Assembly (NCBI GenBank): GCA_049510745.1
Contig: JBEKYR010000073.1
Coordinates: 1-12,617, forward strand
Origin: Verrucomicrobiota bacterium
GTDB taxonomy: Bacteria > Verrucomicrobiota > Verrucomicrobiia > Limisphaerales > Palsa-1400
Reading direction: 5' to 3'
DNA length: 12,617 bases
Position 1 is the stretch's first letter, and the number at the start of each line of letters is the position of its first letter. This document shows positions 1 to 6,000 of this stretch, one piece after another. A program made the position numbers.

Positions 1-3000
1 GATTTTGACTGCTCCGAATTCAAAGTGCAGATCGGCCAAAATGTGTAAACGCATAGGTAACTTTATGTTAGGTGAGAATTGCTTAGGAGTTCAAAGTGCG
101 GGCGGAAGCTTTCGCCTCCGCCCGCGTTGTTCCTGGCGTCCTTGAACCGTTCGCTATTCGCGAACAAAGTCCGCGATTACGGCCGGCACCGTCGTGTCGA
201 AGCCGACCACGTCCAGCATGCCGCGGTCGTTCGGGTCGGCGAGGGTGAAGCCGTTGGAGGTCATGCCCACAACGACCGCCTTCGCGTCGCCGACGAACTC
301 GTCGCGATACTGGCGCAGGGCCTGGGCCGGATGAATGTTGCCCGCCCACGTCTCGCTGTCCGTGTAGGTGACAAACGCCGACACGTTCAGCTTGTTGCGG
401 GCGGCCCACACCATTGGCAGGGCGCAATCCGTGCCACCCATCGGGATGGCTTCGATGCGCTTGATAACCTCGGCCAGTCTCATGCGCGGCGAGAGGTTCA
501 CGCGGGTGATGCCCGGTTCGCCGCCGCCATGCATGCCGCCGTAACGACCCTGTGCCGGAGCCGAGAACGCGATGATCTCGCATTCCGGTTCGGTTGCAGC
601 CGTGATCAGTGCCATCGCGGCGCTGCCTTCGCGGGCCGAGATGCATGAACCCGCGATCATCGAAGCCGCCATTGAGCCGCTCACGTCCAGCGCCAGCAGC
701 ACCGGCTTGTCGCATGGTTCCACGTTCTGGAACGTCGCGTAAAACGCTTCGTCCAGAGCGTCCACCACGGCCGACACTGGCGACCACTTGAGCGCGCCCT
801 TGTCGCCATGGCCCTGGGCGTAGATTTTCTGCGCCACAAGGACCGCCAGCGGGTGGATGCGCGCACGCCTGAGCGCCGTCTCGTCACGCAGCTTGCGGAC
901 GACCAAACGCTTGGCGTCGCTGAAGGGAGCCAGCAGACCGAGGCCAGTCATCTTGCCGAGGTTGCGGATCATCGCCGTCATCGGCATGCGTTCAAGCAAG
1001 GCTTCCCACACAATGGCTTCATTGAGCCACTGCGTTGGGATGGCTTCACGCGGCAGATCGAATTCGTTAATGAGCTTCACGATTTCGCCTGCGCTCGAAG
1101 CGCGCTTGGCCTGCTCGAAGGCTTCGATGAGCTTCGGCAGTGCGCCGACCGCGCCATACTTGGCAACACGGTCTTCACCGCGCACCTTGCGCTTCACTTC
1201 ACGCTCACCTAGCGAATCCGCGCCGGCCAGCAACCAGCGGAAGACCGATTCGTGCTGGGGCGACGGAGCCTTCGGGTGGGCAAGGCGGAGCAAGTCGCCG
1301 TGAGACCAACCATCGCGCTGCTGATACTTCACCGCCTGGTGCGCGAGATCATCGGCATCGCGGTAAACATACCAGTCGCCAACTCCATTGCGCAGACCAC
1401 GGCCCCAGCCGCGCATGGCGTTCACGTATTCAGCGAAGTGGAACAGATGCGTGCCAATGCGGCAGACCTTGTTCAAGATCGCGAATGCGTGCGCCTTCGC
1501 CCGGGCGTCACCATGGGTGACGGCGAGTGCCAGGGCGAAGATGGCCGGATCATTCTTGGGCGCGCGGCCCGCATCGCTGATCTCAACGATGCGGTTGACG
1601 GCGCGCACGCCATCCGCCTTGATGCAACGGACAATCGCCTCGTGGTTCTGCTTCACCAGATCGCGTTCCGTGATGTAATACGTGCCACCCTCGGCGCCAA
1701 GGATGAGGAAACGGTCAAGCCGCGTCCAGTCATCCACTTCCCAGGAGAAGCCGCCACCGGAGTTGCGGATCTGGGTCGAACCCGGGATCGGCTGCAATTG
1801 GGGAGTGATGCGGCGATTGAACTGACGTGCGTAGTTGATAGCCATGGTGGCCTCCTTTATATGTGCGCGCCGCCAACTCCCGGCACGGGTTTTCTATCGG
1901 TTAAACTGCGGACAAGTTGGTGAATGTGGGGTTGGTCATTTGAAGTGATAACCCATGTTCTTCGGCCCGCAGTCAATGAGCTTGCGATTATTCGCGGAAA
2001 AAAGTGATTCCTGAGAGCGCCGTCATATCGGCCGGTGCGGAGACAACATTTCTTAAAAGCTGCGTCCAGAGCCGCATGGGCACAGGTCGTTCCGGCCCAG
2101 CTTTTCGCTGAGTTCCTAATTCCCGTGAACGAGGCGCACGCCGCGTTTCACCTGTGTTTCGGACGGGAAACCCTTGCGACGTTTGCCGGTGATTTCGAAA
2201 CTTGAGTCTTCCTGATCGTGAGCATGGTTTGACATACGGCCTCCTGGTTTGAGTGTTACGGTTGATTCATCGCGGCCGCGCCGTGATGAAATTTCAGATG
2301 GGCAAGGGACGCCATGGAATTACTCCTTGCGGAGGCTGCTCTACCGTTGAGCTACTGCCCCTTCAAGGGGGCAGATCGGACTCGAACCGACAACCGACGA
2401 TAACCCACAACTTCGGCCCATCAAATCAAAAGCGGACAAGAATGCGACTGTGGAGTTGCCCAGTGTGCTGCCTTTAGACCACCGCGGAATCTTCCGCGGG
2501 GCGGAATTGAACCGCCACTGCCGGGCCCCGATAACCCACAATCTATGGCCTGCTAAAGAGAACCGACGGATAAGAAACGAACTGGAAATTAACGTGCTCT
2601 ACCACTGAGCTACCCCGGCATATGGAGCCGGAGGCGGGATTCGAACCCGCGTCCACGCGCTTCGTAGGCGATAACCCAATCCTGCGATCCGTCGAAAAGC
2701 TAAAAACATAGACGGACAAGAGGCGAGGTGGAAATCCATCGGTTGCCCAATGGCGCGGGATTTGCATCCGCTCGCGGTTTCCCGCTTACGATAATCCAAA
2801 CTCAACGGCCCGTCTAAATTGACGCTCCCGATGGGAATCGAACCCACGTTTCCCGGACTAAATCCGGACATTCTCTCGCGGTTGAACTACGGGAATATCC
2901 GGCACCCTCCTGCTGAATGCAGCACGGATGTCGGACGCGGTCTGGTCCGAGACCAACCTAGGTTGCGCCTTCGGAAAGTTCAGATGGACAAGTGGCGTGA

Positions 3001-6000
3001 TCGAACGGAGGCACTCCATGCCGGGAATCGAACCCGGACCGCCAAGGCTTTCGCCACGGACGGTACGCCCTCCTTATGGTGGAGGATAAACGATCAACTT
3101 CGGCCCATCTAAATTGGTCAGGAAGTCGGGATTCGCACCCGAACCGTCGCGTTCACAACGCGGAATGCTGCTGTTACACCACAATCCTGATATGAAATGG
3201 AGCCCCGGGTCGGACTCGCACCGACGATTACGAGCTTACGAAACTCGCCCTGTCGCTTCTGAGGCACTGGGGCAAAATGGTGTCCACGGCAGGAATCGCG
3301 CCTGCGACCTCCACCTTCGCGCGGTGGCGCTCTGATCTAACTGAGCTACGCGGACAATTGGCATCCGTGATCGGACTCGCACCGATTAGGCCTGGCTTGA
3401 AAGACCGGCTGCTCGATCTGCTTTGCATTCACGGACGAAATGGCCCCCGAAGTTGGTATCGCGCCAACGTCTCCTCCTCTTCAGGGAGGCGCTAATCTGC
3501 CTCAGCTACTCGGGGAAATGGCTCACTGAGCCGTAGCTTGGAGAGCGAAAACTGGTCGTCCCGGCAGGTAACGCTCCTGCTTCTTCCGGTTATCGACCGG
3601 AGGCTCTGCTTTTGAGCTACGAGACGGTGGTTAATTGGGGCTTCAAGCCAAACCGCTTCGCGGGACGGAAAACGATATTCACCTTCCCGGTTGGCCGGAT
3701 TCGCATGGCGCGAAAAGGCTTGTAGCTCCTGCGAAAGAGCAATTGGCTTTGATACTGAAGAACGGTCTTCATGGGCTTTCCTTTCGTTGAGGGTTAATAT
3801 TGGCGGATGGTGTAGGGATCGCACCCACGCAGCCCGCAGGCTCACTCGGTTTTCGGGACCGGGGCATTACTTCTCTGCCAACCATCCGAGCAAATTGGCT
3901 GCCAGACTTGGACTCGCACCAAGACAAGCGGCTTAACAGGCCGCCGTGCTACTTTGACACCACCTGGCAATGGCGCTGCCGGCAGGATTCTCACCTGCAT
4001 CGATCCGCTTAGAAGACGGATGCCTGATATGTTCGGCCACGGCAGCATGGAAATGGTCGGAATGGCAGGATTTTCACCCGCGGCCTCCCGGTCCCAAGCC
4101 GGGTGCTCTGAAGACTGAGCTACATTCCGTGAAAAATGGCGGACCCGAAGGGAGTTGCACCCTCAACCCTCCCGCAGACAACGGGGCGCTCTGCTGATTG
4201 AGCTACGAGTCCGAAATGGTGGGAAGTGCTGGTAACGCTCCAGTCGTCGCTTCCAGCTTGTTTGAAGACACCGGTTTTACAGACCGGCAGCCGGATCACT
4301 CCCTAAAATTGGTAGCGGGGGCAGGAATCACACCTGCCTCAAACGGTTTATGAGACCGTCCTCTGTGCTTTAGTCGAGTTCCCCGCAGTGAAATGGTGGA
4401 GTCGATGGGTAACGCTCCCATATCAACTTGCTTGCAAGGCAAGTGCATTACTTGTCTGCCACGACCCCGGAAAATGGCAGGCTGCCTCCGTGCCGCCCGG
4501 AGTACGCTGAGTTTTGGAGACTCGGCCGCGTGCTGACGCTCAGCCTGTGAATGAATGGTGCGGCTGCCGGGAGTTGCGCCCGGACTTCCTTCGTGGCGGG
4601 GAGGCATTCTGCAAAGGTTAAATTACAACCGCGGAAATTAAGAGGGCCGGGAGCGTTCAGGTTCCCGGCCCATGCCATTTCAACAAAGAACAAACACCTC
4701 TTGGCGATCTACTCGATCCCAACCCGCGGTTTCACGGCGGCTGTTTCGGTGTTTAGGGGCACACCTCCTGCGAAGCCCTTAATATGTAAATCTAAAATTC
4801 GTTTCGTTCGTCTTGGTGACGCTGTCTTCTGGTCGTGGGCAGACCCCACCGGTGAGGCTTCTCTGCTCGTCCTCGCCAAAAACAATTTGTCGCCAAAAGA
4901 CATCACCTGGATGTCGCTCTATTTTTGCTCACAGATCGTTCGTCTTTCGTTATCTGCCATTCTCGTCTCAGTCATACAGGGAAAATAAAAAACCCTGCTT
5001 ACACGCGGTAAGCAGGGTGAATAAATTCTCTTTCGATTCGTTACCTGCTTACAGCCAGTCTATCCAAATTGCCTTCGGGTTGCTCTCCAATAGGCACCAA
5101 GGATAGTCCAAGGCCAAACACATGGCCTTGGGTGTACCGGCTATGACGTGTCGCTTTCGCGACCGCCATTGTCGGCCAACTCGTGGCTGATATGCTTAAG
5201 CAAGTCTTCATCGAACTTAAAGACGTATAGCACATGCCACTGGTTACATGCAAGAATTAATTTGAAAATTTTACAAATATTTTGCGGGCGGGGCAGGTCC
5301 AACTGGAATTCACATATTCGGATTGGTTGATGCGAACGTCATTTATCCCAAGGTTTGGGAGGAAAGCAACTCAGGCGACCGACTCCTTCCAGCGAGACCG
5401 CTGGGAAGGAGGCAAGTAGCCGAACAGGAGATCCATGCTTTCTTGGAAGGTGGTCTCAGGTTCGGCTTGCTGGCAATAGCGGTGGTACACTTCGCAGGCA
5501 TGGCGGCGCAGTTGTTCAACGGGCGCGGCACTCAAGCCGGCGTGGGCGAAGGTGCCGATGAGCATATCCAACAAAGGAACGAACTCGGCGTCGTCGAGGG
5601 GCTTTTGATCGTTGTAGCTGAACCAGTGATCGAGTTGGATTTTCCCGAACCGCAGCAAGGTGGTTTCCGTGTCTGTGGCCGAGTGGTTCTCGGTTTTGGG
5701 CGGAGGAGGGTGGATGATGGCAGTCTCCGTGGCACCGTGCAAAGGCGGCAGTTCTTCGGCGGGAAGGCGTAGCGTGATGCTTCGCGCCTGGCCCGGCACG
5801 CGAGAAATCAGCCCGCGTCGCTCCAGGGTCAAAATCATTTGATGCACGCTCGGAGGTGTGACCTGGAAGAATTGCATCATCTCCGCCTCCGCCGGCGGAC
5901 GCCCGTGCAGAGTGATGTAGTGGTTTATGTAGGCCAGGAACTGGCCTTGCCGCGAGGTATAGGGCGGTTTCATAGAATGTGCGTCCGCTTCTGCGACCGC

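Follow-up and report, generated by a model that had tools for sequence, protein, structure and literature searches.

Organization and spread of the island

Why does an Ro60 gene of a verrucomicrobial genome lie among Y-RNA-like and tRNA genes, and does this assemblage serve the cell, a mobile element or only itself? We addressed this question for the window, a stretch of 12,617 nucleotides on contig C73 of the metagenome-assembled genome of a soil bacterium from the order Limisphaerales. This 12.6-kb contig could belong to a co-binned strain.

On the minus strand of the window, a leader (4633-4797) is followed by at least 14 supernumerary tRNA genes (3115-4632), six Y-RNA-like genes and Ro60. 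In relatives, the island runs from the leader through tRNAs Gly to His, three to eight Y RNAs, Ro60 and tRNAs Cys to Gln to HNH and RtcB. The preliminary description, which had placed Ro60 and Y-RNA-like genes inside a tRNA array and reported the same gene order in relatives, was confirmed on both points, and the locus is larger than claimed. An HNH homing nuclease and one or two RtcB ligases per island are linked to the array in relatives; the window itself, whose contig stops 153 bases beyond Ro60, for that reason contains neither RtcB nor HNH. Among 55 loci with an Ro60 of at least 66% identity and enough upstream DNA, Y motifs were found within 3 kb in 51 and tRNAs within 4 kb in 49.

The window holds one such island of the Verrucomicrobiota, a horizontally mobile long tRNA array (L-array); L-arrays as such are already known. 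Ro60 and the Y RNAs are optional cargo in a variable slot between tRNA-His and tRNA-Cys. In the window, this slot is filled by five Y RNAs of tRNA size together with a tRNA-like element, a mini Y RNA, a SEC-C gene that depends on a frameshift, and Ro60 itself. In nine arrays whose genomes yielded no Ro60, the tRNA order was kept and different genes stood between His and Cys. Within the order, 63 of 201 genomes were found to carry the array, with a patchy distribution. The proposed horizontal spread was supported by the patchy occurrence of Ro60 (27 of the 201 genomes, across many families), by flanking genes that differ from genome to genome, and by comparison with five genomes in which Ro60 is 85-88% identical but GyrB only 72-84%, Ro60 being the more conserved protein in all five cases.

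The trn operon of Anabaena sp. PCC 7120 shares with this island dozens of one-strand supernumerary tRNA genes that are redundant with dispersed housekeeping tRNAs, a patchy horizontal spread, and a linked HNH endonuclease and RtcB (Santamaria-Gomez et al. 2021, PMC8421152); that paper also counts Verrucomicrobia among the phyla with such arrays. In contrast to that operon, the islands described here carry Ro60 and three to eight Y RNAs as cargo, have G55/A18 elbows and possess a conserved leader hairpin instead of TrcR-bound promoter repeats. The terms Ro60, TROVE, Rsr and Y RNA are absent from the main text of that article, and TROVE and Ro60 are absent from the part of its supplement considered.

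It is conceivable, albeit unlikely, that the island is a prophage or satellite remnant with counter-defence cargo serving a mobile element and not the cell. Its tRNAs would then substitute for host tRNAs that anti-phage nucleases have depleted, and Ro60 and the Y RNAs would hijack host PNPase. Ro60 homologs do occur in 354 phage records, and in Streptomyces phage Braelyn (MN096371) an Ro-like gene lies on the same strand amid 23 annotated tRNA genes, three of which are directly followed by Y-type motifs. Moreover, the Ro60 of a Thermus phage binds host PNPase as well as two Y-like RNAs (PMC12135203), tRNA arrays have been discussed as putative anti-defence (PMC12803027), and the array is linked to an HNH homing nuclease. 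However, no phage structural, integrase or replication genes were detected among 61 scanned ORFs flanking islands or in the window, and the islands of relatives reside in large contigs of chromosomal origin, one of them 1.1 Mb long and another a 5.9-Mb chromosome. In Braelyn, small ORFs are interspersed, the T-loops are canonical and CCA is not encoded; phage Ro60 is only 35-45% identical. Cali, a cluster C mycobacteriophage with an Ro-like gene, has only two tRNAs nearby. Ro60 genes amid canonical tRNA clusters in Chloroflexota and Streptomyces phages are regarded as parallels to the L-array island.

Ro60 and six Y-RNA-like genes

The Ro60 (Rsr) gene (154-1845, minus strand) encodes an RNA quality-control protein of 563 amino acids with the Pfam domains TROVE (3.5e-46) and vWA_Ro60 (2.1e-60). 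Among solved structures, the protein matched the Ro60 entries 9nen and 1yvp (about 1e-126) and Deinococcus Rsr, 2nvo (4e-108); its NCBIfam Rsr score of 502 bits is under the 900-bit cut-off.

All six Y units, also on the minus strand, share a closing helix and a GNCGAA-type motif as defined by Chen et al. 2014 (PMC4201824); 191 units with such a motif and helix were found in 81 sources. Ya (2980-3112) is Yrn1-like (RF01053, 46.8 bits at 2978-3111; fold z-score −3.8), with compensatory changes in 7 of 45 pairs (16 homologs). Yb (2708-2817; z-score −2.5) has three internal hairpins and 11 of 31 compensatory pairs (12 homologs). Three units are YrlA-like: Yc (2562-2696; RF02553, 44.5 bits at 2564-2678), with the variant helix GGRUCGCAG / CUUAUCC and 11 of 31 compensatory pairs (27 homologs); Yd (about 2430-2552), recognized by shared motifs at a z-score of only −1.4; and Ye (2294-2425; RF02553, 35.5 bits at 2335-2398; z-score −2.4), which comprises a predicted Ro-binding stem, a T-arm, an acceptor-like hairpin, a D-arm and an extra hairpin, and in which 10 of 36 pairs are compensatory (19 homologs). 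The closing stem of Yd is weakened in the window by one A-C mismatch; relatives have intact orthologs at the same position. Yf (1904-1974) is a stem-only mini Y RNA of about 60-70 nt with the helix GGGCCGAAG...GGGUUAUC / CUUGUCC (RF01656, 38.2 bits at 1905-1974, gathering score 38; z-score −2.8) and compensatory changes in 6 of 14 pairs (41 unique homologs). Thus, compensatory pairs occur in five Y RNA types. The elbows of the Y RNAs are of the canonical tRNA type.

The Rfam scores given previously for RF01656, RF02553 (two matches) and RF01053 were reproduced exactly, and all but that of RF01656 are under the gathering scores. The four Y RNAs of three kinds reported on this basis are present, but Yb and Yd had been missed. 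An Rfam "tRNA" at 2492-2619 was rejected as a chimera that fuses the D-arm of a Y RNA to the T-arm of the following one.

In bacterial Ro60 (Rsr) systems, Deinococcus Yrn1 and Salmonella YrlA/YrlB adjoin rsr and rtcBA. As in the island, the Y RNA genes of these systems immediately precede Ro60 on its strand, RtcB is linked, and the Y RNAs combine the GNCGAA-type motif with a tRNA-like domain that has a T-arm and a D-arm. In the island, by contrast, the tandem Y RNA paralogs number up to eight and fall into at least six types, the stem-only mini Y comes in addition, the genes are embedded in a tRNA array, and the Rfam scores are under the family thresholds. Chen et al. (PMC4201824) deliberately discarded matches overlapping tandem tRNAs, so that the tRNA-array context was filtered out of their survey.

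An array of tRNAs with a remodeled elbow

The 14 array tRNAs, all on the minus strand, were identified by ARAGORN and a custom covariance model, R1 (E-values from 3e-19 to 7e-9). From the leader onward, these are tRNA-Gly(GCC) (4556-4632), Ala (4394-4468), Met(CAU) (4310-4386), Asp (4137-4212), Pro (4054-4129), Arg(UCU) (3971-4046), Asn (3896-3969), Ser (3801-3887), Ile(GAU) (3553-3626), Phe (3441-3515), Glu(UUC) (3359-3436), Arg(GCG) (3278-3355), Thr (3198-3273) and His (3115-3189). Two further units, Tyr-like (approximately 4222-4305) and Trp-like (4475-4547), were spotted only on visual inspection, and R1 gave them no support at E ≤ 1. Of the 13 tRNA rows in the preliminary description, the 11 ARAGORN calls, all on the minus strand, and both Rfam rows recurred; the row at 3556-3626 corresponds to tRNA-Ile, but that at 2492-2619 is the artefact spanning two Y RNAs. 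The end of the array, formerly set at 4468, was moved to 4632 based on R1.

All 14 tRNAs encode CCA and have a G55 T-loop, usually with A18. Their elbow combines a YGNRA-type T-loop, G55, mostly A18 and a Watson-Crick 19:56 pair. CCA was encoded in 142 of 150 array tRNAs; G55 was invariant among 138 aligned array tRNAs and occurred in 601 of 636 ARAGORN calls from the 55 loci, compared with 0 of 78 in more distant loci. The array makes up a second, nearly complete tRNA gene set, redundant with the dispersed housekeeping one, whose tRNAs in this genome had TTC in all 51 calls with a canonical reading. In tRNA-Pro the two loops covary: D-loop AG occurs with T-loop GC (9 sequences), and D-loop TT with GA or GG (11 sequences). 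tRNA-Ala has kept G3:U70. The array tRNAs are a maintained class. Unlike its housekeeping counterpart, the window tRNA-His lacks the G-1:C73 pair and therefore may not be charged. The array T-loops UGCGA, UGCAA, UGAGA, UGAAA, UGGGA and CGCGA fit the riboswitch type (YGNRA, with an intercalating adenosine), and the D-loop partner is mostly A. In the part of the source considered (bioRxiv 10.1101/2022.12.26.521914), tRNA T-loops are stated as UUCRA and YGNRA is not described for tRNA elbows.

Between tRNA-Ser and tRNA-Ile lies a conserved spacer (3627-3800, minus strand) that is neither tRNA nor coding; in relatives it had 24 blastn matches at the corresponding place in the array, and translations of its homologs contain stops. 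The non-coding leader directly before the first tRNA (4633-4797, minus strand) is more highly conserved than the genes and had 46 blastn matches, including arrays without Ro60. In the consensus fold it ends in an 11-bp hairpin (4644-4671), three pairs of which are compensatory, and a U-rich tail; its homolog alignment showed no codon periodicity and it had no Rfam match. An intrinsic-terminator-like hairpin found by a terminator scan (4992-5018, minus strand) closes the upstream unit and, in the leader alignment, is a conserved feature of the island's 5' edge. A search for a sigma-70-like promoter was negative. Metatranscriptome contigs from four libraries, mostly derived from relatives (92-99% alike), extend over Ro60, Ya and the mini Y as well as the leader and the array; such contigs cannot prove transcription, ends or strand.

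A frameshift-dependent SEC-C gene and a tRNA-like element

A small SEC-C zinc-ribbon gene (1992-2235, minus strand; ATG at 2235-2233) sits between the Y RNAs and needs a +1 frameshift. At its shift site, a slippery TTT (2058-2056) precedes TAA (2055-2053), and the +1 frame starts at 2054. The frame switch was found in all 35 homologs, 29 of which have an in-frame UAA or UAG at the site and six the sense codons CAA or CCG. Codon-position entropy changes there from frame 0 to frame +1, with codon-level constraint in both frames, and the 0-frame part covers only 13 of the 19 positions of the Pfam SEC-C motif. None of 16 longer database homologs has Cys-Cys in frame. As in the programmed +1 frameshift of prfB (RF2), the P-site codon can re-pair in the +1 frame (here UUU-U) before an in-frame stop; the differences are that the gene is a SEC-C zinc ribbon, that the stop is UAA or UAG and not UGA, and that six homologs have sense codons. 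By eye, there was no obvious Shine-Dalgarno-like stimulator at 3-nt spacing. Our literature search found no paper joining "SEC-C motif" with frameshift terms.

The window copy has an additional in-frame TAG (2118-2116) where relatives have AAG. A tRNA-like element nearby (2820-2897, minus strand) had been described as an ochre-suppressor tRNA, as ARAGORN reads the anticodon tta at 2821-2897 and RF00005 scores 41.7 bits. That it is a working ochre/amber suppressor reading the TAG and TAA of the SEC-C gene in this strain is highly improbable. The only in-frame TAG seen in the SEC-C family does lie in this window, and a relative carries, at L096:7463-7537, a true G55 array tRNA that derives from tRNA-Gln and has the anticodon UUA. 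The window copy of the element, however, ends in TCA instead of CCA and has a mismatched 1:72 pair. The element has a canonical T-loop and lacks GG in the D-loop. Among aligned homologs from 28 related loci, the D- and T-arms were present in nearly all, but the short "anticodon" hairpin varied in sequence and loop length and no other copy had TTA. Suppression would, moreover, abolish the frameshift, which depends on the stop. The suppressor assignment is not supported, and the element is classed as a conserved tRNA-like one.

A decayed second copy and signs of constraint

Contigs C74 and C75, which overlap over 60 of 60 bases (end of C74, start of C75), carry a second copy, 98-74% identical over the array. 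The claim that it is decayed holds: the stretch equal to window positions 268-3192 is missing, the Y RNAs and most of Ro60 are gone, and a C-terminal Ro60 remnant of 37 amino acids (97% identity) is retained. The RtcB-like fragment is present on C75 as reported, but at 8192-8902, outside the range originally given.

Such decay would be expected if the island were selfish, largely non-functional DNA, with HNH-driven, decaying tRNA pseudogenes and Y-RNA relics hitch-hiking between genomes. The SEC-C nonsense codon and weakened Yd, Ro60 pseudogenes with TGA stops in two relatives, and some array units that tRNA models do not recognize point the same way. We nevertheless consider this very unlikely, since compensatory change has preserved helices, the 19:56 pair and identity elements across hundreds of sequences, nearly all array tRNAs encode CCA, both SEC-C frames are constrained, and the leader is conserved beyond the genes. 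The nonsense codon and weakened Yd suggest that the window copy may be partly decaying.

Proposed function

The Anabaena L-array is induced together with rtcB by translational stress, and 23 of its 26 tRNAs are aminoacylated (PMC8421152). We consider the island described here to be probably a translation-rescue kit for damaged housekeeping tRNAs or stalled translation, that is, a mobile L-array with RNA-surveillance cargo. Our analysis shows gene content and order, conservation, covariation, mobility, the remodeled elbow and the frame switch; within the model we infer that the array tRNAs are charged, that Ro60 is bound, that stress induces the island, that there is an effector, and how efficient the frameshift is and what it senses. 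The array would supply spare, chargeable tRNAs with rebuilt elbows, and the Y RNAs would bind Ro60 via the conserved helix with its bulge and link it to an effector, whereby damaged structured RNAs would be degraded or passed to repair. With a +1 shift at UUU before a stop codon, synthesis of the full-length SEC-C protein would depend on the rate at which the A-site codon is read.

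Ro60 gene and upstream Y RNAs

The minus-strand gene at 154–1845 on contig JBEKYR010000073.1 (C73, one of the 85 contigs of the 5.6-Mb genome assembly) is a full-length open reading frame for Ro60 (Rsr) of 563 amino acids. The protein combines a TROVE HEAT-repeat ring (Pfam TROVE, 3.5e-46) with a C-terminal vWA domain (vWA_Ro60, 2.1e-60). Solved Ro60 chains (9nen, 1yvp) match it at approximately 1e-126, it aligns to residues 6–534 of solved Ro60, and Deinococcus Rsr (2nvo) matches it at 4e-108. Its score with the NCBIfam Rsr equivalog model is 502 bits, below the cut-off of 900, and the protein represents a divergent subfamily rather than another fold. 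The contig ends just past this gene.

A re-run of the Rfam and ARAGORN searches reproduced exactly the results of the preliminary description, which had counted four Y-RNA-like genes; reading of the minus strand raised this number to six units, referred to as Ya to Yf. They are located at 2980–3112 (Ya; fold z-score −3.8), 2708–2817 (Yb; −2.5), 2562–2696 (Yc; −1.4), approximately 2430–2552 (Yd; −1.4, the weakest unit), 2294–2425 (Ye; −2.4) and 1904–1974 (Yf, the stem-only mini Y; −2.8), all on the same strand as Ro60 and 60–1270 nt upstream of it, within the 4-kb criterion for a bacterial Y RNA. Each unit begins with a box resembling GGGCCGAAG and then GGGUUAUC (Ya, Ye and Yf carry GGGCCGAAG itself; Yb, Yc and Yd carry variants), and is closed at the 3′ end by CUUGUCC and bases pairing with the 5′ flank. 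This closing helix formed in the single-sequence folds of all six units, including Yd, whose stem has an A-C mismatch that is G-C in relatives. The box fits GNCGAA(N0–1)G, the motif given for YrlA RNAs in a passage of Chen et al. 2014 (PMC4201824), and the long helix of the 5′ and 3′ ends that bears it is retained with compensatory changes.

A motif-and-pairing scan of the window and 80 related loci recovered 191 Y units of recurring types from these 81 sources. Compensatory pairs occurred in every type tested, namely in the consensus folds of the mini Y (6 of 14 pairs; 41 sequences), Yc (11 of 31; 27 sequences), Ya (7 of 45; 16 sequences), Yb (11 of 31; 12 sequences) and Ye (10 of 36; 19 sequences). 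Yc and Ye have the layout of YrlA: their consensus folds comprise the T-arm, acceptor-like hairpin and D-arm of the YrlA tRNA-like domain, with a canonical T-loop (UUCGA) and D-loop (GG). Their matches to RF02553 (YrlA; 44.5 and 35.5 bits, respectively) lie below the gathering score of 69 bits, as does that of Ya to the full RF01053 model of Deinococcus Y RNA (46.8 bits; gathering score 80). Yf passes RF01656, the nematode sbRNA family (38.2 bits; gathering score 38), which we read as a match to the common Y-RNA stem and not as a sign of nematode ancestry. Ya to Yf are predicted Ro60-binding bacterial Y RNAs.

An Rfam “tRNA” at 2492–2619 was rejected as a chimera of the Yc D-arm and the Yd T-arm. 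Chen et al. 2014 (PMC4201824) contains a warning of such artefacts, of which this is a case in the reverse direction. The 82 nt at 2898–2979 (minus strand), between Ya and the tRNA-like element treated below, fold into two hairpins (−32.7 kcal/mol) and matched none of the related loci by blastn.

A conserved tRNA-like element

The element at 2820–2897 (minus strand) had been described as an ochre-suppressor tRNA with anticodon UUA, an assignment that did not hold when homologs from 28 related loci were aligned. A suppressor would be expected to have an intact acceptor end and, within a loop of 7 nt, an anticodon that reads a stop codon and is conserved. The TTA of the window recurs in none of the other copies in this alignment, the “anticodon” hairpin differs in sequence and loop length, the 3′ end is TCA instead of CCA, and the 1:72 pair is mismatched. 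The D-arm and the T-arm are retained in nearly all homologs, and the T-loop is canonical. That the element works as a suppressor tRNA is, in our judgment, extremely improbable. The element is a conserved tRNA-like RNA and not a conserved suppressor, and it may act as a processing signal or as another RNA of the Ro60 module. Elsewhere, related locus L096 carries at 7463–7537 a genuine, CCA-ended array tRNA with anticodon UUA and G at T-loop position 55, and its sequence points to an origin from array tRNA-Gln(UUG).

The tRNA array and its leader

ARAGORN called ten tRNAs in 3115–4468. A covariance model (R1) trained on 138 array tRNAs from relatives confirmed these ten and added Glu(UUC) at 3359–3436, Ile(GAU) at 3553–3626, Met(CAU) at 4310–4386 and Gly(GCC) at 4556–4632 (all minus strand), giving at least 14 array tRNAs in the window and, because of the added tRNA-Gly, an array end at 4632. 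Canonical tRNAs are also scored by R1, which makes it unusable for a genome-wide count of the remodelled class described below. A Tyr-like unit (approximately 4222–4305) and a Trp-like unit (4475–4547), both on the minus strand, were recognized by eye only and had support from neither R1 nor ARAGORN. In every confirmed array gene the CCA end is encoded, and a short U-rich spacer comes after it; spacers of the same kind precede the Y RNAs. Since a dispersed, normal set of housekeeping tRNAs is already present in the genome, the array is supernumerary. In relatives, ARAGORN made up to 22 calls per locus. The array tRNA-His of the window (3115–3189) is without the G-1:C73 pair that is found in the housekeeping tRNA-His and in the copy on C74, a contig with part of a second island. 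Array tRNA-Leu genes measure 73–79 nt in many relatives, where they lack the long variable arm that bacterial tRNA-Leu has, and 84–85 nt on C74 and its continuation C75.

The spacer between tRNA-Ser and tRNA-Ile (3627–3800, minus strand) is conserved, is neither tRNA nor coding and had 24 blastn matches at the same position in relatives; an apparent small reading frame within the array (approximately 3771–3630), which has a ribosome-binding site, was dismissed as non-coding, with stops in its homologs. The 165 bases before the first tRNA (4633–4797, minus strand) form a leader, likewise non-coding and with no codon periodicity seen, whose conservation is above that of the genes and which precedes arrays both with and without Ro60. 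At its end lie an 11-bp hairpin (4644–4671) with three compensatory pairs and a U-rich tail. Rfam at E ≤ 5 returned no family for the leader or the 3627–3800 spacer, a terminator scan placed a terminator-like hairpin ahead of the leader (4992–5018, minus strand), and a sigma-70 promoter scan of 1–5600 found nothing. The leader may function in attenuation or in processing. The LexA-like gene at 5371–5973 was discarded as a conserved array regulator, the flank in common with C74 ending at 5343; TrcR, the regulator of the Anabaena array, is introduced in the account of that system as a ribbon-helix-helix protein.

Metatranscriptome contigs from four libraries of four studies (92–99% alike, mostly from relatives), which attest presence only and not transcripts, ends or strand, cover Ro60, the mini Y (1830–1976), Ya (2943–3154) and much of the array (3359–4254), with heavy cover of the leader region. 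Cover is thin at 2200–2800 and nearly absent at 5200–6000, which is uninformative in either direction.

Remodelled elbows of the array tRNAs

All array tRNAs of C73, C74 and C75 have G at T-loop position 55 (UGCGA, UGAGA, CGCGA and AGCGU are among the loops), and the D-loop is without GG in nine of the ten examined on C73 and in all but three across the three contigs. The housekeeping tRNAs have a UUCRA T-loop and a GG D-loop. In the pertinent section of PMC7912444, U55, G18 and G19 are given as conserved and Ψ55 as universally conserved. Across 66 related loci (Ro60 identity at least 66%), 601 of 636 ARAGORN calls have G55, the exceptions being mostly false calls within Y RNAs or the tRNA-like element, and G55 is invariant in the alignment of 138 array tRNAs. 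Position 56 co-varies with the D-loop within isoacceptors. In tRNA-Pro, D-loop AG occurs with GC at 55–56 (n = 9) and TT with GA or GG (n = 11), while tRNA-Arg(UCG) pairs AC with GG (n = 7) and AU with GA or GG (n = 25). We base the claim of elbow covariation on these switches in place of a rule equating the third base from the D-loop end with position 19, which was too crude, with only 226 Watson-Crick pairs in 565, a number reached by 0 of 2000 shuffles. Identity marks such as G3:U70 of tRNA-Ala are kept. The five-base T-loops match the YGNRA consensus of riboswitch T-loops, which, according to the relevant part of a preprint (bioRxiv 10.1101/2022.12.26.521914), take an intercalating adenosine, UUCRA being the tRNA form. 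The canonical elbows of the Y RNAs versus the remodelled elbows of the array tRNAs are the most suggestive unexplained feature of the island. A lone tRNA-Glu(CUC) with a remodelled elbow is located on another contig of the genome (C34, 35893–35967).

A candidate +1 frameshift gene

A small SEC-C gene (1992–2235, minus strand, ATG at 2235) occupies the interval from Ye to the mini Y, and its zinc motif is split between frames 0 and +1. Frame 0 comprises 60 codons ending in CPCGSGRSF and followed by TAA, and the remainder of the motif (KKCCL...) sits in the +1 frame. The switch occurs at an identical UUU in 35 of 35 homologs, and the next frame-0 codon is TAA in 23, TAG in six, CAA in three and CCG in three of them. 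After a shift to the +1 frame, tRNA-Phe in the P site is able to pair again with UUU or UUC. Entropies by codon position (0.26/0.23/1.10 for frame 0 upstream of the site, 0.44/0.39/1.05 for frame +1 downstream) indicate coding constraint on both sides. A database search yielded 1580 clusters of relatives, with a length of exactly 60 amino acids in most of the best 120, and an in-frame Cys-Cys was absent from all 16 longer relatives fetched. The gene is a strong candidate for programmed +1 frameshifting. That the +1 frame always ends just before the Ro60 start was not upheld, as its length ranges from 19 to 93 codons. The window copy is probably broken because TAG replaces Lys codon 40 (2118–2116). 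A literature search combining SEC-C with frameshift terms found no paper, and PMC3711429 is silent on the matter. The family is a new, widely distributed +1 frameshift candidate outside prfB, and its annotation, in which gene callers end the protein at 60 amino acids, could be corrected.

Distribution and horizontal spread

Ro60 was found in 27 of 201 sampled genomes of the order, in many families and with full-length copies 67–88% identical, and array DNA in 63 of 201. The recurring gene order claimed for relatives was borne out in enlarged loci: tRNAs Gly, Ala, Asp, Pro, Arg, Asn, Ser, Ile, Phe, Arg, Thr and His are followed by three to eight Y RNAs and Ro60, and then by Cys, Arg, three or four Leu, Ile, Arg, Gly, Val, Glu, Thr and Gln. 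Several arrays include an RtcB of 380–440 amino acids after tRNA-Phe and before Arg, some have an SPFH gene downstream of Ro60 ahead of tRNA-Cys, and tRNA-Gln is followed by an HNH gene, to which three of the scanned loci add a larger RtcB. HNH sequences are present in relatives, on C75 and on C80, a further contig of the genome; the window contig, ending after Ro60, has none. C80 (5.7 kb) carries a G55 tRNA-Gln at 991–1065 and an HNH fragment at 1203–1571, and may represent the downstream end that the C73 array lacks. Nine arrays in genomes without detected Ro60 keep the tRNA order; their His–Cys interval is occupied by other genes and has no Y motifs, and Ro60 and the Y RNAs are therefore optional cargo.

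Flanking genes are unlike between genomes. In comparisons with five genomes from other families, identities are 87, 88, 86, 86 and 85% for Ro60 and 84, 74, 73, 73 and 72% for GyrB, so that Ro60 is the more conserved in all five. The patchy distribution, the differing flanks and this conservation fit horizontal transfer. Scanning species-representative genomes gave 80 loci, 66 of them of high identity and mostly labelled Verrucomicrobiota, Limisphaerales or Pedosphaera; we take the few bins with other labels as mis-binned. One locus lies on a 5.9-Mb chromosome.

Alignments confirmed the decayed second copy on C74 and C75, including their overlap of 60 of 60 bases. Identity between C74 and C73 is 93% in the leader flank and falls from 98 to 74% through the array. 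C74 skips the equivalent of window positions 268–3192 and resumes within the last 37 Ro60 codons, and its array continues on C75 with genes for Cys, Gly, Lys, Arg, Leu, Ile, Glu, Met, Thr, Lys, Gln and Val tRNAs and with an HNH gene. This copy may be a paralog or may come from a co-binned strain. Decay of one copy would fit a reading of the island as selfish, decaying DNA, which we consider very unlikely. A HipA/HTH pair is inserted in the second array copy (C75, 531–2334). The window itself encodes at 5371–12615 a protein with a LexA DNA-binding domain, a TPR protein, DUF6398, a DUF6088/AbiEi-like antitoxin, a 165-amino-acid SEC-C protein and a clostripain/Calx-beta protein.

The layout of Ro60 within a tRNA cluster has deposited precedents, because it is also found in Chloroflexota and phage loci. 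Three Chloroflexota Ro60 genes (L101, L119, L123; 53–62% identical) are preceded by Y-type motifs and lie within arrays of 17, 18 and 25 tRNAs, whose T-loops are canonical (TTC in 77 of 78, G55 in 0 of 78). Streptomyces phage Braelyn has an annotated Ro-like gene amid 23 annotated tRNA genes, three of which are immediately followed by Y-type motifs, and canonical T-loops in all 20 ARAGORN-called tRNAs; mycobacteriophage Cali has just two tRNAs nearby. These phage loci invite the reading that the island is counter-defence cargo serving a phage, to which, with one related locus on a chromosome, we assign a low but not negligible probability. No paper discussing the layout was found, and term look-ups in PMC4758250, PMC12803027 and PMC8421152 were negative.

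Biological meaning of the island

A one-strand run of supernumerary tRNAs with patchy distribution characterizes the horizontally spread long tRNA arrays (L-arrays), and the island is a member of this kind that carries a Ro60/Y-RNA surveillance module. As reported in part of PMC8421152, the Anabaena L-array is induced together with rtcB under translational stress and gives charged tRNAs. Stress induction and aminoacylation are demonstrated traits of the Anabaena array only. We consider it reasonably probable that the island is a translation-rescue kit for tRNA damage.

A more elaborate and rather improbable possibility is that decoys and spares are integrated in one system that counters attacks on the elbow or T-loop of tRNAs. 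The YGNRA/A18 elbow of the spare tRNAs would evade enzymes or toxins that read the canonical G18-U55 elbow, the canonical elbows of the tandem Y RNAs would serve as baits drawing Ro60 (and RtcB or PNPase) to damage, and the stop-dependent +1 frameshift of the SEC-C gene and the leader hairpin would sense translation and tRNA supply and set the output of the island.

The island joins two separately studied systems, mobile tRNA arrays, whose role is debated, and the Ro60/Y-RNA particle, whose bacterial substrates are poorly known, and suggests that both deal with damaged or misfolded tRNA. The array would constitute a naturally occurring second set of tRNAs, with elbows that violate two near-universal tRNA rules and are nonetheless maintained under selection. 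These remodelled tRNAs offer a ready test of the elbow readers, including modification enzymes, RNase P, the ribosome and toxins.
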